Shown piece by piece: positions 3,449 to 19,263 of a DNA stretch of 64,000 bases. The notes under the pieces were generated by a model that was given only the letters and a program-made list of their open reading frames with translations, searched no databases and had not been told where the DNA came from. How positions within the stretch are numbered: the first letter of the stretch is position 1; the number at the start of each line of letters is the position of its first letter. This DNA comes from Actinomycetota bacterium (GTDB lineage: Bacteria > Actinomycetota > Acidimicrobiia > IMCC26256 > PALSA-555), in the NCBI GenBank assembly GCA_016870355.1, contig VGBR01000001.1, positions 250,989 through 314,988 of the forward strand, read 5' to 3'. The position numbers and the translations under genes are program-made.

Positions 3449-4486
3449 TCACGCCGTGGCCTTGGTCACCGCCGCGGTCACGTCCCGCCAGCGTTCGAGA
3501 GCGCCGGCGCCGAAGGTCCAGTTCGCTGACGCGTCGTACATGACGACCCGGTCCGCGATGCCGCCGTACTTCTCCACCAGCGCGTCGGCGAGGCCGTCCC
3601 AGGTCGACTCAAGGCTGTAGGCCTCGAGCATGTCGTCGGTGATGGTGTCGGCCATGCCCTTCAGGTCACCCGCGGCTTGGAGCTCGTGCAGCCGGTCGGA
3701 GGTGCCCTCCCAACCGTGCAGGTCGAACACGCCGCTGTAGGTGCGCGTCGAGCCGTAGAACGCGATCCGCAGCCGGGTGTCGTCGCGCGCCTTGATCAGC
3801 TCCTCTTCGGTGTCGCCGAGGATGGCCATCACTGGGCAGACGATCGAGATCTGGCTCGGATCGCGCCCCGCCGAGCGCGCACCATCGGCGGCGTTGGGCA
3901 GCACCACGTCCTGGAGGTAGCGCATCGAGTGGAAGGGGTGGACGTGGATGCCGTCGGCGACCTCGCCCGCCATGCGCGCCGACCATGGCCGCACGGCGGC
4001 GATGTACACGGGCACATTTGGGTGCTCGATGGGGCCGGGGCTCCACATCCTCGGCATCAGGTCGAACGACCAGAAGTCGCCGTGGAAGTCGAGCTTCTCC
4101 TCGCCCTGGAACGCCCGGAAGATCGCTTTGAGCGCCAGCACGCACTCCCGAAGCCGTGACCCCGGGTGGTCGAACGTGACCGAGTACCGCCGCTCGTTGT
4201 GTGCCTTCACCTGCGTGCCGAGCCCGAGGATGAACCGCCCCTCGGTCGTGTCGGCCAGCTCCCACGCGATCTGCGCGGTGACCATCGGGCTCCGGGCGAA
4301 CGCGAGTGCGATGGCCGTCCCAATGTCGAGATTCTGTGCAGTCAACGCGGCCGCGGTGCAGCCCGTGTACGCCGTGCGCCCGCTCTCGGTGAACCACAGG
4401 CCGCTGAACCCGCAGTCTTCGACCTCGCGTGTCAGTCCGGACACCTCACGCAGCGGTCGACCCATGACGATCGCGTCGATCTTCAC
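3449..4486 (-). CDS. LLM-class F420-dependent oxidoreductase (luciferase-like monooxygenase family)
   Basis: 345-aa ORF MKIDAIVMGRPLREVSGLTREVEDCGFSGLWFTESGRTAY...FILGLGTQVKAHNERRYS. Typical luciferase-like TIM-barrel sequence. Confidence 0.85.
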   Translation of the reverse strand: MKIDAIVMGRPLREVSGLTREVEDCGFSGLWFTESGRTAYTGCTAAALTAQNLDIGTAIALAFARSPMVTAQIAWELADTTEGRFILGLGTQVKAHNERRYSVTFDHPGSRLRECVLALKAIFRAFQGEEKLDFHGDFWSFDLMPRMWSPGPIEHPNVPVYIAAVRPWSARMAGEVADGIHVHPFHSMRYLQDVVLPNAADGARSAGRDPSQISIVCPVMAILGDTEEELIKARDDTRLRIAFYGSTRTYSGVFDLHGWEGTSDRLHELQAAGDLKGMADTITDDMLEAYSLESTWDGLADALVEKYGGIADRVVMYDASANWTFGAGALERWRDVTAAVTKATA

Positions 4487-4515
4487 GAAACCTCCTCAAT
4501 TCCGAGTCACACCGT

Positions 4516-5208
4516 ATGCCGAAATCAAAAGTTGGAAACCTTCGCGGTGGTGGCGGCCGCACGTTCGGCGGCATCCTTCACACCGCGGGCCTGGGCGCGA
4601 TTGCCATCGCGATCCTGCTTGTCGTTGGCGCAGTCACTGGACTCGTCGACCTCGGCGGCATCTTCGAGGGCGGCACGAAGACGAAGAGCTCCAAGGTGCT
4701 GCTCAAGGAGATCAAGAACCTTTCGACCTTCACTGCGGCGAAGGGCACTTACGTCGTCAATGTGACCCAGGACGAGAACATTCCGGTCGTTCCCGACTTC
4801 ATTGCAGCGGAGGACATCACTCTTCGCGGTGTCGGAACGGTTGACGCTGGTACCGACTTCTCGGTGCTGAGCACCGACGCAGTGCAAGTTGACGACGCCG
4901 GCGGAGTCACGATCACGCTGCCGCCACCAGTGCTCGGTGACGCGTTCGTCGATCCACAGCGCAGCGAGGTCGTCAATCGCAGCCGCGGTCTCATCAACCG
5001 CATTGGTGACGCCATAGATGGTGATAGCCCAACCGACGATCGGGAGTTGTACGCGCGTGCCGCGGTCAAGATCGAGAAGGCCGCGAAGGAGAGCAATCTC
5101 TCCGAACGCGCTGAGCGGAACACGATCGAAATGCTTGAAGGCTTCCTTGCCCGCCTTGGCTTCACCGACGTGAGGATCACGTTCGAGAAGCCCGCGCCAA
5201 AGAACTAA
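4516..5208 (+). CDS. DUF4230 domain-containing membrane-anchored protein
   Basis: 230-aa ORF with an N-terminal TM (GLGAIAIAILLVVGAV). The pattern that follows (EIKNLSTFTAAKGTYVVNV...DAGTDFS...VTITLPPP) resembles DUF4230 proteins. Confidence 0.7.
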   Translation: MPKSKVGNLRGGGGRTFGGILHTAGLGAIAIAILLVVGAVTGLVDLGGIFEGGTKTKSSKVLLKEIKNLSTFTAAKGTYVVNVTQDENIPVVPDFIAAEDITLRGVGTVDAGTDFSVLSTDAVQVDDAGGVTITLPPPVLGDAFVDPQRSEVVNRSRGLINRIGDAIDGDSPTDDRELYARAAVKIEKAAKESNLSERAERNTIEMLEGFLARLGFTDVRITFEKPAPKN

Positions 5209-5237
5209 CGCTCGCGGCTAGGGGCGACGAGATCCGG

Positions 5238-5270
5238 AGCGCGCCGGTGCGGTGACTACCCACCGGCGCG
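5238..5270. terminator. GC-rich hairpin between convergent genes (candidate bidirectional terminator)
   Basis: An 11-bp perfect inverted repeat, gcgcgccggtg (5238-5248) / caccggcgcgc (5260-5270), with an 11-nt loop. It lies between the stops at 5208 (+) and 5301 (-). Confidence 0.5.
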
Positions 5271-5300
5271 CCTCCGTTGGTCAGCTCCGGCGCTGCGCGC

Positions 5301-5951
5301 CTACGCCTCGTCCGACGCCGACCGTCCACGCCGCTCGGCGTCGGCGATCTCGGCAGTGAGCTCGGCCACCACTCGACCAAGCTCCCGCGTCACCACTGAG
5401 TCGCGGTGGCGCGTGTCGAGCACGCGCACGAGCTCCCGGTAGTACCAAGCCTGCTCGTCGCCGGCGGCGTTGAACCGCGACCACATGTCGGGTCCGTGGT
5501 CACGGAGGTCGGCGAGGATCGAGCGCGCGTTGTGCAGCTTGTCGGCCGCGGCGACGCGCAGAGTGCCGTCGGGCAGATCGTCGTTCTCCAGGTGTTCGAG
5601 GTAGCGCGCCTTGCGCTCCTTCCAATCGGTCGAGTCGCGCGGTCCGTCGACGCCATCGCTGCATGCGCGCACGACCGCAGCGATGTGCTCCCCGAATCGA
5701 GCCCGGATCTCGGCTTCCGCAACACCTCGGTCCTCGACCGCGTCGTGCAGCACCGCGGCGATCGCATCCTCTTCACTGCCGCCATCCTCGAGCACGAGCG
5801 ACGCCACACCGAGTAGGTGCGACGCGTAGGCGATCTGCGTGCCCTTGCGGCACTGGTCGGCGTGCAGCATTGATGCCCAGCGCACCGCCTCCGAGAACCG
5901 CGCACCAAGGACCGCGGTCGGAAGTTCTCCATTCGACGAAGGTGAGCTCAT
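5301..5951 (-). CDS. HD domain-containing phosphohydrolase (RelA/SpoT-hydrolase-like, possible small alarmone hydrolase)
   Basis: 216-aa ORF with YASHLLGVASLV...AVLHDAVED (HD..ED motif of the SpoT/Mesh1-type hydrolase domain). ATGA overlap with the upstream aldo/keto reductase stop. Confidence 0.8.
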   Translation of the reverse strand: MSSPSSNGELPTAVLGARFSEAVRWASMLHADQCRKGTQIAYASHLLGVASLVLEDGGSEEDAIAAVLHDAVEDRGVAEAEIRARFGEHIAAVVRACSDGVDGPRDSTDWKERKARYLEHLENDDLPDGTLRVAAADKLHNARSILADLRDHGPDMWSRFNAAGDEQAWYYRELVRVLDTRHRDSVVTRELGRVVAELTAEIADAERRGRSASDEA

Positions 5952-6949
5952 TTGTCGACCTTGCCCTTCATCCAGAACGACGTGTTGTGGTAGTCGGCGA
6001 CCGCGCTTCCGGGATGCACGAGCTCATCGCACGCGGCGCGGGTTTCGTCGTCGAGGTCCGTGTCGAGGATCCCGAGTGCGTCGTCGAGCTGCTCCAGCGT
6101 GCGCGGCCCGATGATCGGCGCGGTGATGCCGCGTTGGTCCTTGCACCACAGCAGCGCGAGCTGCGTGACGTTGAGGCCGCGGTCCGCGGCCAGCTTCGCG
6201 AGCGCCCGAGCCACGTCGACGCCACGATCGGTGATGCGATCCTTCACCTGCGGCCGCCGGTTGGCGCGTGCGTCCTCAGGGATCCCGTCGTTGTAGCGGC
6301 CGGCGAGCACGCCGCCACCGAGTGGCGACCACGGCAAGACGCCGACGCCGTACTTGAGACACAGCGGGATCAGCTCGTTCTCGATGCGTCGGTCGAGAAG
6401 GTTGTAGGGAGGTTGCTCGGTCTCGTAGCGCGTCAGGCTGTCGCGCTCAGCGATTGCGAGTGCCTCCATCAGCATCCACGCTGGGTGCGTCGAGCACCCG
6501 ATGGCGACGACCTTGCCCGACTGCACGAGCTCGTCGAACGCGGCGAGGGTCTCTTCCTGCGGAACGTTCGCGAACGTCGGACGGTGGAGCTGGTACAGGT
6601 CGATGCGATCCGTGCCAAGGCTTTCGAGTGATCGCTCGCACGACGACACGATGTGCTCGCGGCGGTGCCACTTGTCGGGATCGCCCTTGCCGTGTGGCAT
6701 CCCCACCTTGGTGGCGAGGACTACGTCGTCGCGCTTGCCGTTGGCCGCGAGCGCGGCTCCGAGGATCTTCTCGCTCTCGCCGCCTGCGTACACGTCCGCG
6801 ACGTCGATCATGTTGATCCCACCGTCGATGGCGCGGTCCACCATGCGCGCAGACTCGTCGGGATCGGTCGGGTCTCCGAAGTTCATCGCGCCGAGGCAGA
6901 GCGGCGCCACGGACAGGCCAGTGGAACCGAGCGGTCGTTGGTTGGTCAC
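5948..6949 (-). CDS. aldo/keto reductase
   Basis: Track ORF 5948..7177 trimmed to GTG at 6949 (VTNQRPLGSTGLSVAPLCLGAMNFG...IDVADVYAGGESE...). Classic AKR N-terminus and length (333 aa). Confidence 0.9.
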   Translation of the reverse strand: MTNQRPLGSTGLSVAPLCLGAMNFGDPTDPDESARMVDRAIDGGINMIDVADVYAGGESEKILGAALAANGKRDDVVLATKVGMPHGKGDPDKWHRREHIVSSCERSLESLGTDRIDLYQLHRPTFANVPQEETLAAFDELVQSGKVVAIGCSTHPAWMLMEALAIAERDSLTRYETEQPPYNLLDRRIENELIPLCLKYGVGVLPWSPLGGGVLAGRYNDGIPEDARANRRPQVKDRITDRGVDVARALAKLAADRGLNVTQLALLWCKDQRGITAPIIGPRTLEQLDDALGILDTDLDDETRAACDELVHPGSAVADYHNTSFWMKGKVDK

Positions 6950-6959
6950 GCCCGCGACC

Positions 6960-8237
6960 CTACGACAGCGCGATGGCGGGGTCTTCTGCGATGGCGACGT
7001 CGTCGACGTCCACCGCTGCCTCGGCGGGGGACTGGCGAGCCGTGGCGAACGCGACCAGGCCGGCCGCGACCGCGGCAACCGCACCCACTCCGAGCCCCGC
7101 GCGCGGTCCCAGTGCTTCGGAGAGGGCGCCGATGATGGGGGCGCCGATCGCGGTGCTGCCGAGGAAGGCCACGCCAAACAGACCCATCACCCGGCCGCGG
7201 AACTCCGGCGCGGTCGCCTCCTGGCACACCGCCGTTGCCATGGCGAGCATCACCATCGATGACACGCCGACGAAGGGCAGCACGGCGATCTCGGTGCCGA
7301 GCGTCGGGGCGAGCGCGGCCGCAGTCATCGCGGCGCCGAGCACCAGGGTCGTCAGCAGGGTGACGCGCAAGCTCGCCTTGCCGTAGTGCGCGACGCCCAG
7401 GGCACCGACGAACGAACCACACGCGAGCACCGCGAGCAACATCCCGAACGTCTCGGGGCCGCCGCCCAGCTCACGACGCACGAGGAGCGGGAGCACGACC
7501 TGGTAGTTGAACGTGAACGTCCCGATGATCGCCGTGAGCATCAGCGCGATCCGTACCGGACGGTTATCCCACGCATAGTGCAGTCCCTCGCGAAGCTGAC
7601 CACGTGCGTGTGCGATCGGAGGTGGCGTGCGCAGCTCGTCGGCGCGCATGGCCTGGAGCGACCAGATCACGGCACCGAATGTCGCCGCGTTGATGAGGAA
7701 GCACCAGCCAACGCCGACCCCGGCGATCACGAGGCCTCCGACCGCCGGGCCGATGATGCGAGCGATCGTGAACACCGAGCTGTTCAAGCCGATGGCGTTC
7801 GGGACGTCACCTCCCGGTACCAGCTCCGGCACGAACGCGCGACGGGTCGGGTTGTCGAGCGCGGTCACGACACCGAGCGCGGCGGCGAGCACATAGACCA
7901 TCCATACCTCGACGACGCCAACAAGCGTCACGATGCTGAGGACGAGCGCGACCAAGCCCGAAGCAAGGGATGTGCCGATCAGCAGCCGACGCTTGTCGAG
8001 TCGATCGATGAGAACGCCGGCCCATGCGCCCGCGATCAGCAGAGGTGCGAACAACAGGCCGATCGTGATGCCCACCGCGGCACCGCTGTCGGTGAGTCGC
8101 AGTACGAGCCAGGACTGCGCGGCGAACTGCATCCACGAGCCGGCGCTGGAGACGATCTGACCGATGAGGTAGAGCCGGAAGTTGCGTGTCCGCAACGAGT
8201 GAAAGGTCCGGCGCGCCGCGCGCTCGAGCGGCGTCAT
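6960..8237 (-). CDS. MFS transporter
   Basis: 425-aa ORF with ~12 hydrophobic segments. The N-terminus FRLYLIGQIVSSAGSWMQFAAQSWLVL is typical of the EntS/MFS_3-like subfamily. Confidence 0.85.
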   Translation of the reverse strand: MTPLERAARRTFHSLRTRNFRLYLIGQIVSSAGSWMQFAAQSWLVLRLTDSGAAVGITIGLLFAPLLIAGAWAGVLIDRLDKRRLLIGTSLASGLVALVLSIVTLVGVVEVWMVYVLAAALGVVTALDNPTRRAFVPELVPGGDVPNAIGLNSSVFTIARIIGPAVGGLVIAGVGVGWCFLINAATFGAVIWSLQAMRADELRTPPPIAHARGQLREGLHYAWDNRPVRIALMLTAIIGTFTFNYQVVLPLLVRRELGGGPETFGMLLAVLACGSFVGALGVAHYGKASLRVTLLTTLVLGAAMTAAALAPTLGTEIAVLPFVGVSSMVMLAMATAVCQEATAPEFRGRVMGLFGVAFLGSTAIGAPIIGALSEALGPRAGLGVGAVAAVAAGLVAFATARQSPAEAAVDVDDVAIAEDPAIALS

Positions 8238-8751: not shown

Positions 8752-8856
8752 TTCCACAACGGCGAGATCTCGGCCACTGGAGTTCCTGCGATCAGTGCCG
8801 GTCGGGATTTCCCCGTATGATTGCTACGCCACCTTGGGGGGGCATCTGGAGGGACG

Positions 8857-10119
8857 ATGGGGCCTGCGAAGCGTCGCGATGATCTGGAGAAGCTCGACGG
8901 AACGTGGCGCTGGGCACTCGCCGCCCTCTCCGTCGGTGGAGCGTTCGTGCACTTCGCCGTCATGGGCGAGCACTTCGACGAGAGCACTTGGCACGGCGCC
9001 TTCTTCGCGGTGACCGCGTGGTTCCAGCTCGCGTTCGCGCTCATGGTGCTGCTTCGCCCGAGTCGTCCGCTGCTTCGCATCGGGATGATCGGCAGCGCTG
9101 CGATCATTGGCGCGTGGGTCGTGTCGCGCGCCTTCGGTGTCCCGGTCGGTACCGACCCGTGGACGCCCGAGCCGGCTGCGTTCGCTGACATCCTCGCCAC
9201 GACGTTCGAGGCGCTGACGGTGGCGGGCTGCGCGGCGTTGCTGTGGTCGCGCTCCGCAGTTCGCCGCGTGGCCCCGGCCGTCGCGCTGCCCGCGGTCGGT
9301 GCACTTGGCGCCGCCGTCATGATCCTGTCGACGCTGTCGCTCGTGCCCGCGGTTGCTGGTGAGGGGCACCACCACGGCGACTCGACCGAAGCGGCCGCCG
9401 ATCACGCCCACGAGGAAGCGACCACTGGTGGCGGAGGTGTTGCACCCGAAGACCTCGCCGCGGCGGATCACCACGCCGGCTCCGGCATCGAGGCGCTCGC
9501 AGGCACCTCTCCGTGTGAGGTGAGCGGACCGCCGGTTTCAAAGGCGCAGGCCGCGGGTGGTCACGGCGAGCGCGGCCCGTCACCGCAAGAAGCGATCGAC
9601 GACCCCGCCGTGCGTGAGCTGCTCGGTCAGCAGCTCACGCTCGCGCGCACGGCCGCGGAGAAGTACCCGACAGCGCAGGACGCGGCCGCTGCTGGTTACA
9701 TCCGCGTCACCCCGTACCTTCCGTGCATCGGCGCGCACTGGATCAAGCCGTCGCTGATGGACGACACGTTCGACGTGAACGAGCCCGAGATGCTGCTCTA
9801 CGACCGCAGTGGCGAGGACGGTGAGATGGTCGGCCTGAGCTACTGGGCGCGGACGGGACCCGACGCCCCGCCTGAGGGCTTCGCCGGACCGAACGATCTC
9901 TGGCACCAGCACATCGGTCTGTGCATCGGCGCCTCGGGCGTCGTCGGCAATGAAGAGACGACGAAGGAAGAGTGCGCGCGGCGTGGTGGTCAGAAGACCG
10001 ATGGCTCCGACGCGTGGATGGTGCACGCTTGGGTCGTCCCAGGGTGGGAGAGCGCCTGGGGCCTGTTCAGCGGCGAGCACCCCGAGCTCGGCGAGCACGT
10101 CCCGCACACCACCGACTGA
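8857..10119 (+). CDS. membrane protein: N-terminal multi-TM domain, His-rich linker, C-terminal soluble domain of unknown function
   Basis: Track ORF 8821..10119, with ATG at 8857 after GGAGGG. About five hydrophobic helices, then GEGHHHGDSTEAAADHAHEE...AADHHAGSG, then a ~190-aa Cys/Trp/His-containing domain. Confidence 0.7.
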   Translation: MGPAKRRDDLEKLDGTWRWALAALSVGGAFVHFAVMGEHFDESTWHGAFFAVTAWFQLAFALMVLLRPSRPLLRIGMIGSAAIIGAWVVSRAFGVPVGTDPWTPEPAAFADILATTFEALTVAGCAALLWSRSAVRRVAPAVALPAVGALGAAVMILSTLSLVPAVAGEGHHHGDSTEAAADHAHEEATTGGGGVAPEDLAAADHHAGSGIEALAGTSPCEVSGPPVSKAQAAGGHGERGPSPQEAIDDPAVRELLGQQLTLARTAAEKYPTAQDAAAAGYIRVTPYLPCIGAHWIKPSLMDDTFDVNEPEMLLYDRSGEDGEMVGLSYWARTGPDAPPEGFAGPNDLWHQHIGLCIGASGVVGNEETTKEECARRGGQKTDGSDAWMVHAWVVPGWESAWGLFSGEHPELGEHVPHTTD

Positions 10120-10147
10120 CCTCTTCTCGCGCAATGAAGGTCCGGCC

Positions 10148-10966
10148 ATGAGGTTCGGGCTCGATGTCGCGGCACAACGCATGCCGTTCTCCGAAGTCGT
10201 CGCGCGGGCGCAGCTCGCCGACCAGGTCGGCTTCGACGGCGTGTGGGGCTTCGACCACTTCCAGCCGATGTACGGCGAGGGACCGGGCGAATGCTTCGAG
10301 GGCAACACCACGTTGGCCGCGCTGAGCGGCGTCACCTCCAAGGTGCGGCTCGGATTGTTGGTGACGGGAATGACATATCGCCACCCTGGCGTGTTCGCGG
10401 CTGAAGCCATCACGATCGACCACGCGTCGAACGGCCGGTACGAGCTCTCGTATGGCGCGGCGTGGTTCGACAAGGAGCACCACGAGCTCGGCATCCCGTT
10501 CCCTGGCTTGAAGGACCGCATCGACGCCTTCGAGGAAGCGGTGCAGATCATTCGAGGTCTGCTCACGACCGACGGCTTCACGTTCGAGGGGAAGCACTTC
10601 CAGGTTCGCGACGCGACGTTGCACCCGCGGCCGGTGCAAGACCCCCACCCACCGATCTGGATCGGGGCATCCGGCGAGAAGCGCACCATGCCGATCACGG
10701 CTCGCTACGCCGATGTGTGGCACTGCTTCGGCCCGGTGAAGCACCTGGCCCCGAAGTCGGAGCGGCTCAGCGGCATGGCCGAGGCTGCGGGTCGCGACCC
10801 GTCCGAGATCACGCGCGCGGCGTCGCTGTCGCTCGAGGACGACTGGGACGAGATGCGCTCCACCGTCGACGCGTGGAGCGACGCCGGCTTCGGCTACCTC
10901 GTGTGCGGCTGGCCACCCCAAGGCGCCGACCGCGTCAAAGAGTTCGCCGACCGCTTCCTTGCGTAG
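10148..10966 (+). CDS. LLM-class F420-dependent oxidoreductase
   Basis: Track ORF 9950..10966 trimmed to ATG at 10148 (MRFGLDVAAQRMPFSEVVARAQLADQVGFDGVWGFDHF...). Luciferase-like family. Confidence 0.85.
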   Translation: MRFGLDVAAQRMPFSEVVARAQLADQVGFDGVWGFDHFQPMYGEGPGECFEGNTTLAALSGVTSKVRLGLLVTGMTYRHPGVFAAEAITIDHASNGRYELSYGAAWFDKEHHELGIPFPGLKDRIDAFEEAVQIIRGLLTTDGFTFEGKHFQVRDATLHPRPVQDPHPPIWIGASGEKRTMPITARYADVWHCFGPVKHLAPKSERLSGMAEAAGRDPSEITRAASLSLEDDWDEMRSTVDAWSDAGFGYLVCGWPPQGADRVKEFADRFLA

Positions 10967-11045
10967 CCCCCGAAAGGCCTGACGCGGGAGAAGCCCGACA
11001 CCGGCACCGAGTCGCGCGGGCCTGCGTGCCCGGGCGACGTCGCGG

Positions 11046-11747
11046 TTAGGAGAGCGGCGACCAACTGGTGGTGCGCAAGAGGCGGCTTTCCCAGTCGTCG
11101 CGGACTCGGAGTGCGTCGTGCATCCAGGTGCCAGGGGCGCGGTACTCGGGCGGCACTTCGGTGAGCAGCAGGTTCTTCAGCCGGTCGTGATCGCTGATGC
11201 GCTGCCAGAGCACGACTTCGGCGCGGCGGCCAGCTCCCCACGCAGTCTGGAACACGGTGAGGAGCTCGAGGATCCCGCGGCCCTTCCCGTCGGAGATGCT
11301 CGGCGCGTAGTGCGTGCGCGCGGCTTCGAGGTAGTCGTCGAGCATCCCCGCGTGCGGCCACGCGGTGTCCTCCATGAACAGCGTGAGCTCGTGGTGCTGC
11401 GGTGACGTCGGTGTCTCGTCGAAGTCGACGATCGGTGGTGCCCACGGCACGGTGAGGAGCACTTTGCCGTGCACGTTGTGGCGAACCTGATCGGTGTCAC
11501 GTGCGAGTGCTCGGAGGTCCCCGTCCTGCACGCGCGCGGCGAGTCGGTCGTATGCCGCGCCGTCGCGCACGGCAGTGACGGTCGTGACCTCGTACGCACG
11601 ACCCGAACCGTGCGCCAGGTGCAAGAAGTAGAGGAGACGGGCGTCGTCGCCCTTGGCGAGCTCTGGCAGCCACCCGTCACGGAAGCACGCTTCGAACTCG
11701 TCTTCCTTCGCACCACGGACCTTGTGAACCTCATGCAGGAGGAGCAT
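11046..11747 (-). CDS. NIPSNAP-like (tandem dimeric alpha-beta barrel) protein
   Basis: 233-aa ORF with two internally similar halves of NIPSNAP/ABM-like character. It starts 5 nt after the selenoprotein stop on the same strand. Confidence 0.55.
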   Translation of the reverse strand: MLLLHEVHKVRGAKEDEFEACFRDGWLPELAKGDDARLLYFLHLAHGSGRAYEVTTVTAVRDGAAYDRLAARVQDGDLRALARDTDQVRHNVHGKVLLTVPWAPPIVDFDETPTSPQHHELTLFMEDTAWPHAGMLDDYLEAARTHYAPSISDGKGRGILELLTVFQTAWGAGRRAEVVLWQRISDHDRLKNLLLTEVPPEYRAPGTWMHDALRVRDDWESRLLRTTSWSPLS

Positions 11748-11752
11748 TGGGG

Positions 11753-12277
11753 TCAGTCGATCAGATGCCCGAGGATCTCGTCCACCGCACTGTCGGCGAG
11801 GGCACGCATCTCGTCGTCGGTCCGATCCTGGATCGGGTGCGCGACGAACACGCGCGTGGGGTCAGCACCAAGGGCCTTGGCTTGGGCGTCCGCGCCCGTG
11901 ACGAATTCATCCGACGCGACGAACACCATCGGCACACCCATCGCTTCGAGGTTCACGGTGTCGTGCACACTGCACGACGTACAGGATCCTCAGTCGGCGA
12001 GCGCCTCGATCACCACATCGCACTTCGTGGAGATCTCGTGCCGGAGGTCGATCGGCGCCGGCTTGGTGAAGGTTGGCTTCTTGAACCGTTCGACTCTCAT
12101 GCCGCGCTGCTCGAGGTGCTCCTGCACGCGGTCGAGGAACACATCACCGCGCGCCTTGCTGATGTCGAGCAACCCGACGATCTTGCCTTCGAGTGATCCC
12201 GGTCTCTTGGCGAGCTCCCGCGTCGCTGCGGTGCGCTCCGCGGTCGGGTCGAGGAGGATCCGTCCCGTCTCCGTCAT
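11753..12277 (-). CDS. UGSC-family selenoprotein (174 aa; in-frame UGA at 11990-11992 read as selenocysteine)
   Basis: Track ORFs 11990..12277 and 11753..11968 are in the same phase, separated only by a TGA and 7 sense codons (...VVIEALAD-U-GSCTSCS-VHDTVNLEAMGVP...). A hairpin follows 11 nt downstream of the TGA. ATGA overlap with the upstream gene. Confidence 0.75.
11960..11978 (-). promoter_or_regulatory. candidate bacterial SECIS stem-loop
   Basis: The mRNA reads UGA-GGAUCCUGUAC-GUCGUGCA-GUG-UGCACGAC. This is an 8-bp perfect stem (or 6 bp with a 7-nt loop) with G/U in the apex. The apex lies about 20 nt from the UGA. Confidence 0.5.
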
Positions 12278-13707
12278 GCGACCACCTCCCTCGTGACCGG
12301 TTCGCTGCCGATCGCGCCACCGACCCAGCCCCCGATGATCTCGGAGAACAGGCCCGCGCCGCCACCAGCGTGCACGATCAGCAGCCCGCCGTCCCGGAAC
12401 TTCGGCAACACCGTGTCAGCGAAGCCTTCGGGCATGCCCTCGGTGATGCCGCCGGCGCCCCTGATGAGCTCGGTGCCTGGGATCTGGAGGAGTGTGCCGA
12501 GCTCCTCGTGAAGGCGGGCCCGTGACCATCCGGCCTGCCTGAACACCCGTGAGTGCTCCGGACCGATCACGAGCGTGGCGTCGATCGCGACCACCGTCTT
12601 GGGGTGCGCCACTGTGCGCAGGCACGCGGCGTACGTGCGGACCAAGGAATCGGCCTCGCGCGACAGCTGGTCGACGACGACCCGCGGTCCTTCGCCGGCG
12701 AACACCGTGACGGCGGACTGATCGGACGCGAAGCCGCGTGACACGTGCAGTGGCTCCCACGGCGACCCGGTCTCGTCTTCTGCGAAGCAGAACGTGAACT
12801 TGCCGGGGTTCCCGTGCGCGGCTCGGTCGACCTCTCCGGGCCGTCCGCCTCCCACGTTTCGGATGACGAGCTGAAGCGCGCGCCCAATGGTCGCGTTGGC
12901 GCGATTCCCTTGCCCGAGCACGTTGCCGCCGGAGTTCATGCCGATGGCCCGCGTGATCGGGCCGTTCACGATGACGACCGGGCCGACCGGCATCGTCGTC
13001 GCGAGCACACCGTGGATGTTGAACTCCTCGGTGCACGCGGCTTCGACCGCAGCAAGCACGACCGGTAGGTACTCGGGCCGACAGCCGGCCATGACCGCGT
13101 TGATCGCAACCTTCTCCACCGTGCACTCGGTGAGATCGGGAGGGACGACCGCGACGACGTCGTCAGGGTTGCGTGTCGTGCCCGTGAGGAGATGCGCGAC
13201 GCGTTCTGGTGTTGGTGGCACGAGCGGAAGCCCGTCGCTCCACCCTCGCTCGAACATTGCTTCCATTTCGTCCTCGTGCGCGCCCAGCTCGACGCGTCGC
13301 GAGCGGAGCTGCGCCGCGCCCAGCGCGGCTGCGCGCGCGGCGGCGATGTCGGGGTCCTGGGTCTTCGAGCCGCAGCCGGGGCGGTGAGACGGCAATCCCT
13401 CGCCGAGTCCCGATCGGCCGGTGAACGACTCCCACTCGTCGCGGCTCCATCCAACGATGCGCGCGACCTCCTTTCCTGACTCGACGCGCAGCACCGTCGG
13501 CACGGTGTCGAGATCGAGTGCGAACGACATCGTGAGCGACGTGTCGTCGACCGGGTCGAGGCCTTCGGGGAATGCGGCGTCGTCCTGGGTGTAGATCGTC
13601 AGCCGGTCCGACTCCGCGAGCTCTTCCAGTACGGGGACCACGAGCTGGCAGGTCGGGCAGTCACGCTTCACGACGGCAACCAGCCCGTCGGGAAGCGAGG
13701 GAGTCAC
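12274..13707 (-). CDS. thioredoxin-fold (CPTC) domain fused to a large uncharacterised conserved domain
   Basis: Track ORF 12274..14202 trimmed to GTG at 13707 (GTGA overlap with the serC stop). The N-terminus LVAVVKRDCPTCQLVVPVLEEL is Trx-like. The C-terminal ~340 aa carry motifs GWSDGLPLVPPT, AINAVMAGC and RANATIGRAL, with no function I can assign. Confidence 0.75.
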   Translation of the reverse strand: MTPSLPDGLVAVVKRDCPTCQLVVPVLEELAESDRLTIYTQDDAAFPEGLDPVDDTSLTMSFALDLDTVPTVLRVESGKEVARIVGWSRDEWESFTGRSGLGEGLPSHRPGCGSKTQDPDIAAARAAALGAAQLRSRRVELGAHEDEMEAMFERGWSDGLPLVPPTPERVAHLLTGTTRNPDDVVAVVPPDLTECTVEKVAINAVMAGCRPEYLPVVLAAVEAACTEEFNIHGVLATTMPVGPVVIVNGPITRAIGMNSGGNVLGQGNRANATIGRALQLVIRNVGGGRPGEVDRAAHGNPGKFTFCFAEDETGSPWEPLHVSRGFASDQSAVTVFAGEGPRVVVDQLSREADSLVRTYAACLRTVAHPKTVVAIDATLVIGPEHSRVFRQAGWSRARLHEELGTLLQIPGTELIRGAGGITEGMPEGFADTVLPKFRDGGLLIVHAGGGAGLFSEIIGGWVGGAIGSEPVTREVVA

Positions 13708-14831
13708 TTCTGGAGTGCCGCGACGATGTGATCGATCGCGCGCGTGAGGATCTCGAGGTCGCTGGTCTCGATCGCAGGGAACATCGCGATGCGCAGCTGG
13801 TTGCGACCGAGCTTGCGGTACGACTCGACATCGACGATGCCATTCGCGCGCAGCGCAGCCGCGAGGTCGTCGGCCTCGACGCCCTCGAAGTCGATCGTCG
13901 CCGTCACCGGGCTCCGCTCGGACGGCTTCTGCACGAAGGGCGTCGCAAACGCGCTGGCGTCGGCCCAGCCGTAGACGACGTTCGCAGATGCCGCGGTGCG
14001 CTTGGCCATGCCCGCGAGGCCGCCATTGGCGAGCATCCACTGGATCGTGTCCTCGAGCAGGAACAGGGTCGCCAGTGCCGGCGTGTTGTAGGTCTGATCT
14101 AGGCGTGAGTTCTCGAGCGCGATCAGGAGGCTGAGCGACGGTGGTTGCCAACGGTCCGTCGCGGCAATGCGTTCGATGCGCGCGATCGCCGCGGGTGAGC
14201 ACAACGCAAGCCAGAGGCCGCCCTCGCTCGCGAAGGCCTTCTGGGGCGCAAAGTAGTAGGTGTCGACCTGTGTGAGGTCAACCGCGATGCCGCCCGCCGC
14301 AGAGGTTGCATCAACGATCAGCAGGCGATCGGCTGACCGCCCGTCGGGTGCCTCGACGGGCATCGTGACGCCCGTCGACGTCTCGTTGTGCGCCATCGCG
14401 AACGTGTCGGCGTCCGATCCCTTCCACGCAGGGTGCGTGCCCGGTGGTGATTCCACGATGATCGGATCCTCGAGGTGCGGCGCGCCGCGGGTGACGGCGG
14501 CGAACTTGGCCGTGAACTCACCGAAGGAGAGGTGCTCGCTCTGGCGCTCGATGAGGCCGAACGCGGCGGCGTCCCAGAACGCGGTCGTGCCACCGTTGCC
14601 GAGGAGCACCTCGTATCCGTCGGGAAGCGAGTACAGATCGGCGAGCCCCTGCTTGATGCGACGGACCACCACGCGCACGCCCTCGCGACGATGGCTCGTG
14701 CCGAGGTAGGTGGGAGCCGCGGCAGCAAGTCGCTGCACTGCGTCGGTGCGCACCTTCGACGGGCCGGACCCGAAGCGCCCGTCGGACGGCCGCAGGTCGT
14801 CGGGGAGCTGGATCGCGGCGGGGTCGGGCAT
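13704..14831 (-). CDS. serC: phosphoserine aminotransferase
   Basis: 375-aa ORF of the actinobacterial SerC type (RFGSGPSKVR...LGTSHRREGV...YFAPQKAFASEGGLW). Confidence 0.9.
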   Translation of the reverse strand: MPDPAAIQLPDDLRPSDGRFGSGPSKVRTDAVQRLAAAAPTYLGTSHRREGVRVVVRRIKQGLADLYSLPDGYEVLLGNGGTTAFWDAAAFGLIERQSEHLSFGEFTAKFAAVTRGAPHLEDPIIVESPPGTHPAWKGSDADTFAMAHNETSTGVTMPVEAPDGRSADRLLIVDATSAAGGIAVDLTQVDTYYFAPQKAFASEGGLWLALCSPAAIARIERIAATDRWQPPSLSLLIALENSRLDQTYNTPALATLFLLEDTIQWMLANGGLAGMAKRTAASANVVYGWADASAFATPFVQKPSERSPVTATIDFEGVEADDLAAALRANGIVDVESYRKLGRNQLRIAMFPAIETSDLEILTRAIDHIVAALQK

Positions 14832-14856
14832 CGCTGTCGAGGCTACCGGGGCTACC

Positions 14857-15189
14857 TCACGAGGCCTCGACCGATTGCTTGAACCGGTCGGCCGGGCGGC
14901 CCGTCTCGTCCTCGTACCAGCGCGGGCGCATGGTGCGCGCCCAGCGCGCGGTCACCGTGCCTCGGCGCATGCCGTGCATAGCGTCGGGATCGCGGATTGC
15001 GAGGAACACGTGCGCGCCGACCGAGATCCAGATCAGGAGTGCGAACCAGTCGTGGACGAACGTTGCGCCGACGCGCCAGTCGAGCGGCACGATCGAGAAC
15101 CACTTGAGCATCACGCCGCTGCCGAGCATGACGACGATCGCGGCGCCGAGGAGCACTGCGTTGAGCTTCTGTCCTGGATTGAACTTGCC
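14857..15189 (-). pseudogene. cytochrome b (Ni_hydr_CYTB / b561-like) C-terminal fragment
   Basis: Only the last ~111 aa of track ORF 14857..15462 look protein-like (GKFNPGQKLNAVLLGAAIVVMLGSGVM...ATFVHDWFALLIWISVGAHVFLAIRDPDAMHGMRRG). That is two of the four expected helices. The upstream in-frame sequence is Arg/Pro-rich junk. Confidence 0.55.
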
Positions 15190-15512
15190 GCGCGCGCGGC
15201 GATCTCCATCGCCGCGCGCATCTTGCTGCCCTTCGGTAAGCGCACCCGCTTCACGTGGTGCGAGAGATCGAAGTCGGGATCCGCCGACCACGCCGGTGGA
15301 CCGACGCGCACCGCCGGTTCGACGACGCGCTGGCGCATGCGCGGGATGAGGCGGGTGCTGCGCTTGAGTCGTTCGAGCACGCGCTTCCACGACGGCGCTT
15401 TGTCGAGCACCAGGAGCACGACGATCGGCGACCGCAGGTGCGGATCGCGCTCGATGTTCCACATGAGCGTGTCCGCGTCGCCCATCGCGTGGTCGAAGGT
15501 GTCGTCCGCCAT
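15111..15512 (-). pseudogene. wax ester synthase/diacylglycerol acyltransferase (WS/DGAT) N-terminal fragment
   Basis: The first ~110 aa match the WS/DGAT N-terminal pattern (DTLMWNIERDP...IPRMRQRVV...GPPAWSADPDFDLSHHVKRVRLPKGS). The catalytic HHxxxDG region and the remaining ~350 aa are missing. The reading frame decays into the cytochrome b fragment near 15185. Confidence 0.55.
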
Positions 15513-15517
15513 GGCCG

Positions 15518-16216
15518 TCAGTTGCTCAGGTACCGGGAGCTCGTCGGCGAGAGATCCGCGTCGAGCTCGTAGACGAGTGGAACGCCGGTGGGGATGTTGA
15601 GCTCCAGCACCTCCTCCTCGGAGAGTCGGTCGAGATGCATCACGAGCGCGCGCAGCGAGTTCCCGTGCGCGACCACGAACACGGTCCGACCTTCACGGAG
15701 GTCACCAGCGATGTGGTCGTGCCAGTACGGGAGCATCCGCGCGACGACATCCTCGAGACTTTCGCAGTGAGGGAGCGCGTCATCGGGCACCTCGGCGTAC
15801 AGAGGCTCCTTGCGCTGGGCGACCCACGCGTCGTCGGTGATCGGGGGCGGGCGGGTGGCGTATGAGCGCCGCCACTGCTTGACCTGCTCGTCGCCGTACT
15901 TCGCCGCCGTCTCGGCCTTGTCGAGCCCCTGAAGCGCGCCGTAGTGGCGCTCGTTCAGGCGCCACGACCGCGTCACCGGCACGTCGCCGTTGCCGATCCG
16001 CATCTCCTTGAGCGCGAGCTCAACAGTCCGGATGGCGCGCTTCTGGAGCGAGGTGTGCACGAGGTCCGGCACGAGGCCCGCGTCACGGAGCCGTTGCCCG
16101 GCCGCGCTCGCCTCGGCCTCACCCTGGGGGCTCAGGTCGACGTCGACCCATCCAGTGAAGAGGTTCGCGAGGTTCCACTCGCTCTGCCCGTGACGCAGGA
16201 GCGCCAGCGTCGCCAT
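15518..16216 (-). CDS. gpmA: 2,3-bisphosphoglycerate-dependent phosphoglycerate mutase
   Basis: [29 protein letters not shown]...[12 protein letters not shown]. Canonical RHG and histidine-phosphatase motifs. Confidence 0.92.
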
Positions 16217-16247: not shown

Positions 16248-17405
16248 TCAAGCCGGCGCGTCGGGCGTCGGGGCGATCATCGGACCGCGGGGCATGGGCG
16301 CGGTCGTGGTGGTGGTCGGTGGGAGGGTGGTCGACGTCGTGCTCGTCGACGTGGTGCTCGTCGTCGGCCCGGTGCGCTGCCACGACGTGAGGTCGAACGC
16401 CTCGTTCAGCGCCGCGAGCACTGCGTTGGCGATGATGTCGGCACCGGGCCGCTCGAAGTGGATGCCGTCGCCGGTACGCACCTTCACGAGCGATCCGCCC
16501 GGCCAGACCAAGAAGTCGGCGTAGCCGCCGTCGGGTCCAGCGAGCAGCGCGGCGGTGTCAACGTAGAACACGCGTCCCTCCCGCTTCGCGGCCTCCTGCT
16601 TCACGATGTCGTTGATCAGCTTGTAGCGCGTCTCGTAGCGAGTCACGTTCCGCATCTGCGGGATGCCGATCCAGAGGAGCGTGATGTCGCCGGTTCCGGT
16701 CATGGAGTCCATGAGACCGCCGACGCGTCGCCGGTACTCCTCGATCCACGCCGGACTCCCCAGCGATCCGACGCCACCAACACCCGTCAACGCCTGGTCA
16801 TCGTTCGACCCGATCGTCAGGACCATCACGTCGGGCGCGAAGCTCGCCACGACCGACTGGAGGTAGCCGGGCCAGTTGAACACCTCGGGGCGCGCGAGGC
16901 CCGTCGCCACGTGCCCGTCGACCGTGCGCACGTTGCCGATGACCTGCGTCGCCACTGCCTGGTTGATGACGGACTCGCCAGGTGTGACCGAGAGCGAGTC
17001 GCCGCCGACCCAGAGTCGTGCCGGCTGCGCGGGCGTGAACGCCAACTTCTTCTCGGGACTCGGGATCGTGGTGTCGGTCTCGATCGTCGGGCTCGGCAGC
17101 GTGAGATCGACGCCGTCGTCGTCACCGCGACCGATGAGCTCTTGGAGACCGAGGCGGATCCGATCGATGTACAACGCGTGGCTCACGTCGTAGAGCGGGT
17201 CGGCGAACGTCGTCGCGACGTCGCGCTCGGTGCCGACGTCCTGGCTGAGCGCCGTCTTGCGGATGCCCGGCGCGTTGAGCAGACCTCCGACGAGGAGGCA
17301 CACGAGTCCCACGATCCACACATGGCCGACCGACATCATGCGGCGATCGGGATCGTCGTGACGATCGGCCTGACGCGTGGCGCGGATGCGGGTGTCGTCC
17401 GGCAT
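16248..17405 (-). CDS. SGNH/GDSL hydrolase-type (DUF459-like) protein with an N-terminal TM and a Thr/Ser/Pro-rich C-terminal tail
   Basis: 385-aa ORF with LWVGGDSL (block I GDS), TIGSNDDQ and DGIHF blocks. Tail [30 protein letters not shown] overlap with the upstream MBOAT gene. Confidence 0.75.
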
Positions 17406-18835
17406 CAGAACTGGAAGTAGATGAACGGGGGAACACCGCTCCCGGCCAACGTGTCAGTGACGAGCAGCGCGAGCGCGAGCACAAGTCCCTGCGCGACCGG
17501 CGCCAGCCTCGAGAACCGCGCCATCGCGCGCTTCATCCGGACCTCAGGGATGTACTGCTCAGCGATGCCGACCGCGATCGCGAGCAACACGCCGAACGTC
17601 ACGAGCGGCGCGTGGTCGAACCAGTGCGACGGGTCGAAGAGACGACCGATGACGTCGCCGGCCCTCTCGAACGACTCGGCGCGGAAGAAGATCCACGCGA
17701 ACGCGACGATGTGGAACGTCACCAGTCGACGCACGAACCGGCGCCGCGGTGTGTCAAGGAGCTCGGGGAGCAGCTTCGCGATGCGACGGTTGTGCCGATG
17801 GTGATCGATGCACAGGAACAGCCCGTGGATGGCTCCCCACACGATGAACGTCCAGGCGGCGCCGTGCCACAACCCTCCGATGAGCATCGTCAGCATCAGG
17901 TTGCGATACATGCGGACGTTTCCACGGCGGTTCCCGCCCAGTGGCACGTACAAGTAGTCGCGCAGCCATCGCGACAGCGTCATGTGCCACCTACGCCAGA
18001 AGTCCTGGACCGACGTCGCGGTGTACGGGCTGTCGAAGTTCTGCGGGAAGCGGAAGCCGAGCAGCAGCGCGAGCCCGATCGCCATGTCGGTGTAGCCACT
18101 GAAGTCGGCGTAGATCTGGACCGAGAAGGCGTACACCGCGACGAGGACGGTCAGGCCGGAATGGCGGCCTGGTGATGCGAACACCGGGTCGACCATCTTG
18201 GCGAGCACGTCGGCGATCACGAGCTTCTTGAAGAGGCCCATGAAGATGAGGAAGAACGCCCGGCTCGCGTCGATCTGTTGCGGGTCGTGGGCCTCCTTCA
18301 GCTGGGGCATGAACTCCGCGGGGCGCACGATTGGTCCGGCAACGACGTGCGGGAAGAACGAGAGGAACACACCGAAGTCCCAGACCCGACCGGGCTGGAA
18401 CGTGCCCCGATAGACGTCCATCAGGTAGCTGATGGCTTGGAAGGTGAAGAACGAGATGCCCAGGGGCAGCGCGACCGTCGTGATGTCGGGCGAGATGTTG
18501 ATTCCGATGCGGTCGAGCAGGTTGGTCGCCTCGCTGACGAAGAAGTCGTAGTACTTGAAGTAGCCGAGCACGAGCAGGTTCCCGGCGAGACCCGCGACGA
18601 GCCAGCGGTGCTTCGTGCGTTGCTCGGTCGCGGCGTGGATCTTGCGCGCGACGAGCTGGTTCCCGACCGTCGACGCCGCGATCAGCACGCAGAACCACGG
18701 CTCGAGCCATCCGTAGAAGACGTACGACGCGCCCAGCATGAAGATCTTCCACCGACGTCGTCGCGGCATGAGCAACCACGACAACGGAAGGACGATCATG
18801 AAGAAGAGCGCGAACGTGATCGTCGGGAACAGCAT
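17405..18835 (-). CDS. MBOAT family O-acyltransferase (AlgI/DltB-like)
   Basis: Track ORF 17405..19012 trimmed to ATG at 18835 (MLFPTITFALFFMIVLPLSW...). Multi-TM, with the conserved FWRRWHMTLSRWLRDYLYVPLGGNR histidine motif. Confidence 0.88.
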   Translation of the reverse strand: MLFPTITFALFFMIVLPLSWLLMPRRRRWKIFMLGASYVFYGWLEPWFCVLIAASTVGNQLVARKIHAATEQRTKHRWLVAGLAGNLLVLGYFKYYDFFVSEATNLLDRIGINISPDITTVALPLGISFFTFQAISYLMDVYRGTFQPGRVWDFGVFLSFFPHVVAGPIVRPAEFMPQLKEAHDPQQIDASRAFFLIFMGLFKKLVIADVLAKMVDPVFASPGRHSGLTVLVAVYAFSVQIYADFSGYTDMAIGLALLLGFRFPQNFDSPYTATSVQDFWRRWHMTLSRWLRDYLYVPLGGNRRGNVRMYRNLMLTMLIGGLWHGAAWTFIVWGAIHGLFLCIDHHRHNRRIAKLLPELLDTPRRRFVRRLVTFHIVAFAWIFFRAESFERAGDVIGRLFDPSHWFDHAPLVTFGVLLAIAVGIAEQYIPEVRMKRAMARFSRLAPVAQGLVLALALLVTDTLAGSGVPPFIYFQF

Positions 18836-18885
18836 GGGGGCGGAGTCAGTCTCGCACGGCGCCGCGCGAGCGCAACGAACGGTCG

Positions 18886-19263
18886 CTAGGCGTTGGGAAG
18901 CAAGGGTGTACCCCACGGGACCGTGACCTGCACGATCGACATGCCCCGCGCCAGCTCGCGCGCGATGTGGTCGATCGCGCGCCGACTGGCGCGCCAGCCG
19001 ACGACGCCCCACTCGTGTCGCTCGTCGCCGCGTTCGGCTTCCACGAAGATTGCGACCAGGACGGCGATCACGATCACGCCGCCCACCTCACTGAAGTCCA
19101 AGCAACCGCTCGCGGCCTCGGACCAGTTGGCATCCTCGTCCTTCAGTTGTTCGTTCAAGTGCCACCCGCGCCAGCGCGGCGGTTGTGGCAACCAACGGAG
19201 GCTCACACGCCAGGGGGATCCGTCGGCTGCCACGACCGAGCGCGACAGCGGCTCCCACGACAC
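18886..19263 (-). CDS. hypothetical protein with one predicted TM helix
   Basis: 125-aa ORF with high GC3 in frame and the hydrophobic segment VGGVIVIAVLVAIFV. No family recognised. Confidence 0.45.
   Translation of the reverse strand: MSWEPLSRSVVAADGSPWRVSLRWLPQPPRWRGWHLNEQLKDEDANWSEAASGCLDFSEVGGVIVIAVLVAIFVEAERGDERHEWGVVGWRASRRAIDHIARELARGMSIVQVTVPWGTPLLPNA

Follow-up and report, generated by a model that had tools for sequence, protein, structure and literature searches.

Two groups of described proteins come closest to the genes considered here, a thioredoxin (Trx)-fusion gene and the selenoprotein gene directly downstream of it, which lie on the minus strand between positions 11046 and 14831 of a 64,000-nt stretch of DNA (hereafter the window, to which all coordinates refer unless a locus is named) from a 68% GC contig of an Acidimicrobiia (Actinomycetota) metagenome-assembled genome (MAG). 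Among the Stickland reductases, the hosts of which are amino-acid-fermenting anaerobes and the selenoprotein B components of which are GrdB, GrdF, GrdH, and PrdB, glycine reductase is thioredoxin-dependent. In PrdAB, the substrate is held on PrdA and attacked by the selenocysteine (Sec) of PrdB, after which the enzyme is reduced again, with PrdC involved (PMC11229817). The second group is the UGSC family, the 'UGSC-containing protein' of Zhang and Gladyshev, exemplified by ABI76733.1 from Hyphomonas neptunium and one of the major selenoproteins of the GOS metagenome, from which its fusion to a domain denoted Unknown_1 was reported in 2008 (PMC2398784, Figure S1A); a UxxC motif is given for both the UGSC and the selenoprotein B families in the same paper (Table 2). 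In the literature, including reviews of 2022 and 2026, no function is assigned to UGSC, and the protein is described as having a 'likely Trx-like fold' (PMC2398784, PMC13188914).

The selenoprotein encoded in the window is an ordinary member of the known but uncharacterized UGSC family: it is full-length and high-scoring, carries the U-G-S-C motif and a strong selenocysteine insertion sequence (SECIS) hairpin, and displays no protein-level difference from other members. The gene upstream encodes a 477-aa protein, denoted Trx-LD, in which a Trx-fold domain is joined through a Cys-containing linker to a large domain (LD) of approximately 340 residues. An earlier note on this DNA had placed these two genes, together with serC on one side and a gene labeled NIPSNAP-like on the other, in a candidate four-gene Se-dependent redox operon, and its author knew of no described pathway of such composition. 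Judging from comparison across genomes, it is the two genes for Trx-LD (12274..13707) and UGSC (11753..12277) that make up the functional unit, rather than the four-gene string, and we consider it reasonably probable that the two products constitute a single thioredoxin-driven, Sec-dependent oxidoreductase. The features of the pair are the following.

12274..13707, minus strand: Trx-LD, 477 aa, GTG start; Trx-fold domain, Cys linker, and 340-aa LD
13408..13707, minus strand: predicted thioredoxin-fold domain, approximately aa 1-100 (AlphaFold2 model and PDB profile match)
13648..13659, minus strand: CPTC redox motif, aa 17-20; C17 and C20 are invariant in 23 sequences of 70-88% identity
13372..13374, minus strand: codon of linker Cys112, in HRPGCGS, between the Trx domain and LD
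12277..13305, minus strand: LD, approximately aa 135-477; orphan enzyme-like family of ~340 residues
13081..13083, minus strand: codon of C209, the invariant Cys of NAVMAGC; conserved column of LD
12787..12789, minus strand: codon of C307, in PGKxxFCxAE[DN]E; conserved column of LD
11753..12277, minus strand: UGSC selenoprotein, 174 aa including Sec96; match to PF24696 and NF041046
11990-11992, minus strand: UGA codon of Sec (U96), an in-frame TGA within ALAD-U-GSCTSCSVHD
11981..11983, minus strand: codon of Cys99, the putative resolving residue, part of UxxC
11972..11974, minus strand: codon of Cys102, completing the UxxCxxC motif
11960..11978, minus strand: SECIS-type hairpin GUCGUGCA-GUG-UGCACGAC, with an 8-bp stem that begins 14 nt past the U of the UGA

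Conservation of the Trx-LD and UGSC gene pair

A genome scan, with one genome per species, yielded 568 confirmed Trx-LD loci, and gene neighborhoods were counted in the best 80 of the 568 (61-77% identity), which span approximately eight phyla (Actinomycetota, Myxococcota/'Deltaproteobacteria', Spirochaetes, Chloroflexota, Acidobacteria, Nitrospirales, Hydrogenedentota, and Alphaproteobacteria). UGSC is encoded immediately downstream of Trx-LD, on the same strand, in 73 of these 80 loci; the seven exceptions include four at a contig edge, one that ends 0.1 kb past the Trx-LD match, one with UGSC 3.9 kb away, and one with no UGSC within 1 kb. The other members of the string are far more restricted, with serC located directly upstream in 3/80 loci and within ~2.5 kb in four more, and the gene for the 233-aa protein (the supposed NIPSNAP-like gene) present in 5/80; the loci with either gene are all from Actinomycetota, mostly close Acidimicrobiia relatives. 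Clustering of all flanking open reading frames (ORFs) of the 80 loci revealed no other widely common neighbor, the best real candidate being a family III CoA-transferase gene, found in 10 loci. Thus, the neighborhood analysis that the earlier note had suggested as a check upholds the co-localization of Trx-LD with UGSC and identifies serC and the 233-aa gene as local companions only, so that the four genes cannot be treated as one functional module.

The association holds in other sets as well. UGSC is adjacent or fused to LD in all 12 further LD loci examined, and each of the 12 records with a UGSC match in the plasmid collection has an LD match alongside, including records from the haloarchaea Halalkalicoccus, Natrinema, Halorientalis, and Haloterrigena. 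In the sets examined, LD and UGSC are an obligate pair, and UGSC never travels alone. The domain architecture varies: among 150 LD cluster representatives, 71 consist of LD alone, 45 are Trx-LD, 19 are UGSC-LD, 4 are LD-UGSC, and 5 are LD-LD. UGSC-LD fusions are numerous, and many 414-aa database entries look like Sec-type fusions ended early at the TGA.

The UGSC/Unknown_1 fusion of 2008 is probably a UGSC-LD fusion; the unfused pair, the Trx-LD fusion, and a linkage to trxB/trxA are absent from the account given in that paper (PMC2398784). A fusion of UGSC to another domain was thus already known, whereas the literature that we searched contains no report of a near-universal two-gene unit, of Trx-LD as a fused form of trxA and LD, of linkage to thioredoxin reductase (TrxB) or ferredoxin-thioredoxin reductase (FTR)-like genes, of a link to selenoprotein B, or of the absence of a solved LD fold. 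The statement that no such pathway had been described is accordingly correct with respect to function, which is indeed not assigned, but it passes over a named family that is a major GOS selenoprotein with a fusion on record.

The system is often multiplied. A single 7.5-kb stretch (locus L100, 196-7641) contains three LD/UGSC sets, an Actinophytocola locus (L081, 1-9638) has two fusions 8 kb apart, and a Halalkalicoccus locus (L086, 5327-8026) has the order LD-UGSC-LD. Tandem LD paralogues are located upstream of Trx-LD in Myxococcota and Spirochaete loci (L027, L030, L033, L037, L045, and L077), and LD-LD proteins of ~713 aa exist.

Selenocysteine recoding and the relation to selenoprotein B

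With U read as C, the window UGSC protein matches PF24696 at 159.5 bits (cut-off 25) over residues 8-172 and NF041046, 'UGSC family (seleno)protein', at 160.4 bits (cut-off 125), and the portions on both sides of the UGA match the UGSC profile (E=7.7e-34 and 1.2e-35). Among 74 homologous loci, the Sec codon is TGA in 73 and TAG in one, and the motif LAD-U-GSCTSCSV is found in 68. The hairpin spans the codons for T-S-C-S-V-H-D and folds in every locus displayed; it is letter-identical to GUCGUGCA-GUG-UGCACGAC in 60 of the 74 loci, and in four loci a compensatory change replaces a G-C pair with A-U (TCA...CAT). Synonymous sites within the stem are frozen (Ser TCG in 68/74, Ser AGT in 72/74, Cys TGC in 74/74), and five different codons are used for the Ser immediately upstream of the stem. 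In distant Sec-type genes, in which the motif is U-G-S-C-T-S-W, the stem is preserved by a second compensatory change, from UGC/GUG to UGG/GUC; among three Cys-type UGSC genes, the hairpin is missing in two, and the third has a weaker, 6-bp stem. These comparative data indicate that the UGA is a genuine recoding site and not a chance stop, with Sec insertion predicted from the in-frame UGA and the SECIS hairpin. Family matches, the near-universal TGA, and the covarying hairpin bear out the description of this gene in the earlier note as encoding a UxxCxxC selenoprotein.

No tRNA-Sec gene and no selB homologue were detected in the window. In two Acidimicrobiaceae MAGs, a tRNA-Sec gene is located 1-4 kb downstream of Trx-LD/UGSC (L026, 11473-11566, minus strand; L075, 8342-8437, minus strand), and these are two of just seven tRNA genes detected across the 80 loci; the second locus also encodes a selB homologue (10328-11407, minus strand), and selB is found near the UGSC/LD copy of Paracoccus. 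In Candidatus Blastococcus massiliensis AP3 (L050, NZ_HG931175.1), the UGSC gene, at approximately 7395-7886, has TAG at the Sec position (GAT TAG GGC) and retains the downstream hairpin, in which one pair is G-U; possible explanations are that the gene is a pseudogene, that a dinucleotide was misread in sequencing, or that a different recoding event takes place.

The sole recurrent matches of UGSC to foreign families are to selenoprotein B models (GrdB, GrdF, GrdH, PrdB, and TIGR01918), the selenoprotein B families compared being PF07355, TIGR01917, TIGR01918, and TIGR04483. Such matches were obtained for three of seven UGSC members (best E=1.5e-4), and TIGR01917 was matched by 10/73. For the window protein, the match is confined to the Sec segment, with residues 82-122 aligned to positions 333-372 of the GrdB model. 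When a 101-sequence UGSC alignment was compared using hhalign with 11 PrdB/GrdB-like sequences that the GOS paper provides in its Dataset S1 (PMC2398784), the two aligned over 59 columns with P=8e-5; the Sec residues were matched to each other, as were the G(I/V)P(T)V strands, and HP(I/L) fell on YPLG. The Sec of UGSC, located in a U-x-x-C motif, thus appears to occupy a position homologous to that of the catalytic Sec of GrdB and PrdB.

The likeness to the Stickland selenoprotein B extends from a UxxC Sec placed where a strand ends and a helix begins, with the G(I/V)P(T)V strand and (H/Y)P(L/I)G coming next in the sequence, to a predicted mode of operation in which the protein would work with a separate substrate-binding partner encoded alongside, and its oxidized form would be recycled by a dithiol or thioredoxin-type system (PMC11229817 for PrdAB/PrdC). 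The differences are also substantial. UGSC is devoid of the 150-330-residue N-terminal part of GrdB/PrdB, and its partner is LD rather than the PrdA/GrdE pyruvoyl proprotein; neither the window nor those loci whose genes are annotated or carry Pfam labels contained genes for PrdA/GrdE, GrdA, GrdC, or GrdD. Unlike the anaerobic Stickland hosts, the hosts of UGSC are largely aerobic aquatic and soil bacteria, together with haloarchaea. The window UGSC protein also fails the selenoprotein B cut-offs, scoring 11.8 bits against TIGR01917 (cut-off 602.2) and 12.2 bits against NF040794 (cut-off 800), with no match to PF07355. Given these scores, the missing N-terminal region, and the absence of a PrdA/GrdE partner, UGSC falls outside the GRDB family and is plausibly a minimal, distantly related version of the selenoprotein B Sec core.

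The Trx-LD protein and a candidate mechanism

A protein identical to the 477-aa product (P0001) is present in public records under the name 'thioredoxin family protein', and at least 8000 homologues were found. The AlphaFold2 (AF2) model has pLDDT >90 over residues 1-130, with the order of secondary structure elements β-α-β-α-β-β-α that is shared with thioredoxin (strands 8-13, 36-40, 71-76, and 79-85; helices 18-33, 59-64, and 89-96), and the family profile of the protein matches PDB thioredoxins with E=6e-4. In the model, the CxxC motif (C17, C20) is located at the start of helix 1 (helix 18-22), so that the N-terminal 100 residues are predicted to form a Trx-fold domain with CxxC at the N terminus of helix 1, as the earlier note had proposed from the CPTC motif. 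Yet this is not a thioredoxin proper: the domain scores 18.5 bits (E=0.0016) against the TIGR01068 equivalog model, for which the cut-off is 96.8, the motif is DCPTC rather than WCGPC, and LD is fused to the domain via a linker with an invariant Cys. Within this linker, R109, P110, G111, C112, and S114 are invariant in the 23 sequences of 70-88% identity, and the HRPGCGS segment, invariant among Trx-LD proteins, is missing from stand-alone LD. The C-G-S of the linker echoes the U-G-S-C of the partner protein.

The LD family comprises 6207 clusters at 50% identity (E<=1e-3) and is characterized by the conserved elements GWxDGLPxVPPT, NAVMAGC, RANATIGRA, PGKxxFCxAE[DN]E, PEH, and AGG, in addition to which Asp, Arg, Lys, Asn, and Glu residues are conserved. 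The motifs singled out in the earlier note (CPTC, AINAVMAGC, RANATIGRAL, and GNPGKFTFCFAEDE) are all present, with most of their positions showing no or almost no variation among homologues. Searches of Pfam and NCBIfam with the window protein, 10 distant representatives, 19 stand-alone LD proteins, and a 92-member alignment produced nothing recurrent for LD, and the profile search of the PDB retrieved thioredoxins alone, matching the N-terminal domain. In the AF2 model of the window Trx-LD, built with 23 close homologues, the LD part had a mean pLDDT of 66 and was unusable, and a UGSC-LD fusion relative (92 sequences) was modeled instead, with pLDDT 94.7 and pTM 0.94; in this model, the UGSC and LD domains are predicted to pack confidently against each other. 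A Foldseek search of the PDB with the fusion model returned no match at E<=1e-3, the weak matches being flavodoxin-like and falling on the UGSC domain. The structure and fold searches thus leave LD without an assignable function, as the earlier note had it. In view of the empty Pfam, NCBIfam, PDB sequence, and Foldseek scans, LD was rejected as a known enzyme, and likewise as a homologue of PrdA/GrdE or of the N-terminal part of GrdB by comparison with the 11 GOS PrdB/GrdB-like sequences (hhalign E=0.7-0.8). The UGSC domain of the fusion model has a predicted flavodoxin-like α/β fold, as opposed to the 'likely Trx-like fold' of the literature, and resembles neither Trx nor peroxiredoxin (Prx); within the PDB, it is closest to flavodoxin-like domains and to lumazine synthase, with TM ~0.5.

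In relatives whose LD is not fused to Trx, the thioredoxin system recurs next to the pair. Arthrobacter sp. ERGS1:01 has the order trxB-trxA-LD-UGSC, in which a separate, canonical trxA (WCGPC) overlaps the start of LD; the window Trx-LD is therefore best described as a fused form of the trxA and LD arrangement. The order is LD-UGSC-trxB in Roseovarius sp. THAF8, and in Variovorax sp. SRS16, trxB, a TTT binding protein gene, and an SDR gene precede LD-UGSC. One Sec-type UGSC-LD fusion gene is directly followed by a gene for a PF02943 (FeThRed_B) protein, similar to the beta subunit of ferredoxin-thioredoxin reductase. The wider surroundings of the relatives are islands with genes for TRAP, TTT, and MFS carboxylate transporters, family III CoA-transferases, MmgE/PrpD, Iso_dh, aconitase X with DUF126, enoyl-CoA hydratase, SDRs, and LysR/IclR regulators. 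These contexts, together with the conserved Arg, Lys, Asp, and Glu of LD, weakly suggest a small di- or tricarboxylic acid as the substrate. Divergent UGSC-LD fusions lie beside aconitase X and DUF126 genes in two unrelated bacteria, Sporomusa termitida (574 aa; L088, plasmid pSPTER, 2902-8056) and Vibrio europaeus (561 aa; L090, pVEu, 4040-8047). In deltaproteobacterial MAGs (L084/L085, 664-9068), Sec-type UGSC and stand-alone LD end an operon of two complete CoxLMS-type molybdenum hydroxylase sets and are followed by MFS and EamA transporter genes.

The earlier note had proposed a relay from the Trx domain to the selenoprotein that serves the large domain, and this idea gains strong comparative support from the adjacency in 73/80 loci, the UGSC-LD fusions, and the clusters with trxB/trxA and the FTR-like gene. 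In the oxidoreductase that we propose, the two proteins would form a complex in which LD binds the substrate, a small carboxylic acid judging by the contexts of the relatives. Sec96, in U-x-x-C at the start of a helix, would act as a nucleophile or reductant and end up joined to Cys99 by an Se-S bond. This bond would be reduced by the CPTC dithiol of the fused Trx domain, which would in turn be recharged by the thioredoxin reductase of the cell and NADPH. Such a design would parallel that of selenoprotein B in the Stickland reductases for glycine and D-proline, except that an unrelated partner would take the position held there by the pyruvoyl subunit. A more specific form of this proposal, which we advance only tentatively, is that LD is the catalytic subunit, with a fold absent from the PDB, of an unrecognized class of thioredoxin-dependent Sec/Cys reductases, found in haloarchaea and in aerobic bacteria abundant in freshwater, the sea, and soil, that share the ancestry of their Sec module with the Stickland selenoprotein B; Sec would attack a small carboxylate held by LD, resulting in reductive C-X cleavage or ene-reduction, and the Se-S bond would be recycled by a fused or adjacent thioredoxin.

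Several observations weigh against these proposals. The similarity to GrdB/PrdB is short (40-59 columns) and far below the family cut-offs (11.8 vs. 602 bits), and part of it could be due to convergence on a strand-UxxC-helix unit. On the side of the partner, LD shows no similarity to the GOS PrdB/GrdB-like sequences and contains no evident pyruvoyl-type processing site. None of the 80 Trx-LD loci encodes trxB within 6 kb, the fused type presumably relying on the housekeeping thioredoxin reductase. Trx-LD of the window type also has no conserved catabolic neighbors among the 80 loci, so that the hint to the substrate comes solely from distant relatives (31-54% identity), and the Trx-fused type may serve a housekeeping role.

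Other functions would accommodate part of the same evidence. LD could be a Cys-dependent isomerase, hydratase, or lyase acting on a carboxylate that is itself not reduced, with UGSC and Trx serving only, as a dedicated activating or repairing relay of the kind known for thioredoxin-regulated enzymes, to keep the catalytic Cys209 in the reduced state. The invariant Cys and the acid/base residues of LD would suit such an enzyme, non-redox carboxylate enzymes (MmgE/PrpD, aconitase X, enoyl-CoA hydratase, and CoA-transferases) abound in the contexts of the relatives, and the linkage to Trx, TrxB, and the FTR-like protein fits equally well. We nevertheless regard this possibility as unlikely, considering that it would be costly to maintain one thiol with a Sec protein that is stoichiometric, always inherited together with its partner, and often fused to it, and that retention of Sec in 73/74 loci and the similarity to the catalytic core of GrdB/PrdB point to a catalytic Sec. 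An antioxidant or thiol repair function, whereby UGSC would be a peroxidase- or disulfide-reductase-like protein recycled by Trx, and LD would be a scaffold or a recognizer of protein substrates, seems less probable still. Most prokaryotic UxxC selenoproteins are thiol oxidoreductase-like (PMC2398784, PMC13188914), the family is abundant in oxic surface waters (PMC2398784), and the high conservation of Trx-LD (61-77% across phyla) in the absence of fixed metabolic neighbors is what would be expected of housekeeping; however, the fold predicted for UGSC is not that of Trx or Prx, its only foreign family matches are to selenoprotein B, and the polar residues of LD and the catabolic islands of the relatives are reminiscent of a small-molecule enzyme.

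The remaining two explanations appear highly improbable. Some enzymes of the molybdenum hydroxylase class carry labile selenium. With the deltaproteobacterial pair located after two molybdenum hydroxylase gene sets, and the Paracoccus ferrooxidans pair near genes for DsrE, TusA, and cysteine desulfurase, as well as selB, LD and UGSC might hand on persulfide or perselenide, for purposes such as the modification of cofactors or tRNA, instead of converting a metabolite. These cases are single observations, though, and no sulfurtransferase or cysteine desulfurase neighbor recurs across the 80 loci; furthermore, Cys-type versions exist in haloarchaea and in bacteria in which the gene needs no Sec insertion. 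The four-gene Se-dependent redox module, consisting of serC, Trx-LD, UGSC, and the 233-aa gene and possibly linked to serine or phosphoserine metabolism, is by a small measure the least probable. The overlaps and the 5-nt gap would permit co-transcription and translational coupling, and the arrangement is retained in the closest Acidimicrobiia relatives (L001-L004 and L011). No promoter- or terminator-like sites are predicted inside the string, the scan of 10800-15600 having yielded none, which is uninformative for a 68% GC actinobacterium. However, serC is directly upstream in only 3/80 loci and the 233-aa gene is present in only 5/80, both are missing from every non-actinobacterial locus, the packing is equally tight across nine unrelated co-directional genes, and the 233-aa protein matches no family, NIPSNAP included. 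The comparative data thus largely refute this module.

For UGSC, a selenoprotein that has long had no assigned function and is among the commonest in aquatic environments, the present results add an obligate partner, LD, a link to the thioredoxin system, and a likely distant relation to selenoprotein B, and render it experimentally testable in cultured organisms. Cys-type versions, which can be expressed without the Sec machinery, are encoded by the cultured, tractable Arthrobacter sp. ERGS1:01, Roseovarius sp. THAF8, Variovorax sp. SRS16, and Halalkalicoccus jeotgali B3, and Sec-type versions by Pseudonocardia bannensis DSM 45300 and Paracoccus. Should the proposed oxidoreductase be confirmed, selenoprotein-B-type catalysis would not be confined to anaerobes that ferment amino acids but would range far more widely, a biochemical role would be assigned to a selenoprotein family that ranks among the most abundant in the environment, and some of the selenium that abundant freshwater Actinobacteria require would be accounted for.

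The local gene string

The two genes that flank the pair in the window are the following.

13704..14831, minus strand: serC, phosphoserine aminotransferase of the actinobacterial type (TIGR01366)
11046..11747, minus strand: gene for a 233-aa hypothetical protein without a family match; lineage-specific downstream neighbor

The four minus-strand ORFs are chained by a GTGA overlap, an ATGA overlap, and a 5-nt gap, and the gene coordinates and junctions given in the earlier note were all confirmed from the sequence. The serC ORF ends in ...CAG AAG TGA, with the GTG of the 477-aa ORF overlapping as GTGA; the Trx-LD stop and the UGSC ATG overlap as ATGA at 12274-12277; and the UGSC stop at 11753-11755 is followed by CCCCA and the ATG of the 233-aa ORF. 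The serC product passes the TIGR01366 equivalog model (513.4 bits, cut-off 401.65), and the gene is a putatively translationally coupled upstream neighbor that lies outside the conserved module. The same gene order is found on other public contigs that encode the identical 477-aa protein, where the selenoprotein is called as two products of 95 aa and 71 aa.

The NIPSNAP (PF07978) label of the 233-aa protein was that of the earlier reader rather than an observation, and it found no support in sequence-level tests: there was no Pfam match at E<=1 and no NCBIfam match, the only match in a sequence search of the PDB was by chance (E=1.3), a test for an internal repeat was negative, and the cluster names did not support it either, public records listing the protein as 'hypothetical protein'.

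The four genes come last in a minus-strand string of nine co-directional genes, which extends from 19012 to 11046 and leaves no more than 31 nt between neighbors. Because tight packing is a property of this whole genome region, the chaining of the four genes is not in itself evidence of shared function. The upstream members of the string encode an MBOAT protein, a DUF459/GDSL protein, a phosphoglycerate-mutase-like protein (His_Phos_1), a WS_DGAT fragment, and a 99-aa product; the MBOAT and DUF459/GDSL genes overlap by 1 nt, and the 133-aa WS/DGAT fragment (15111..15512, minus strand) corresponds to only the N-terminal part of the acyltransferase domain. Inside the MBOAT ORF (17405..19012), ARAGORN calls a 97-nt tRNA-Arg(tcg) gene (18667-18763, minus strand), which has no Rfam match at the gathering score and is probably a false positive. 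Just beyond the string, a gene for a luciferase-like monooxygenase (9950..10966) adjoins an ORF on the plus strand (8821-10119; 432 aa, or 420 aa in public records) for a protein that has no Pfam match and features hydrophobic N-terminal segments and a His-rich stretch.

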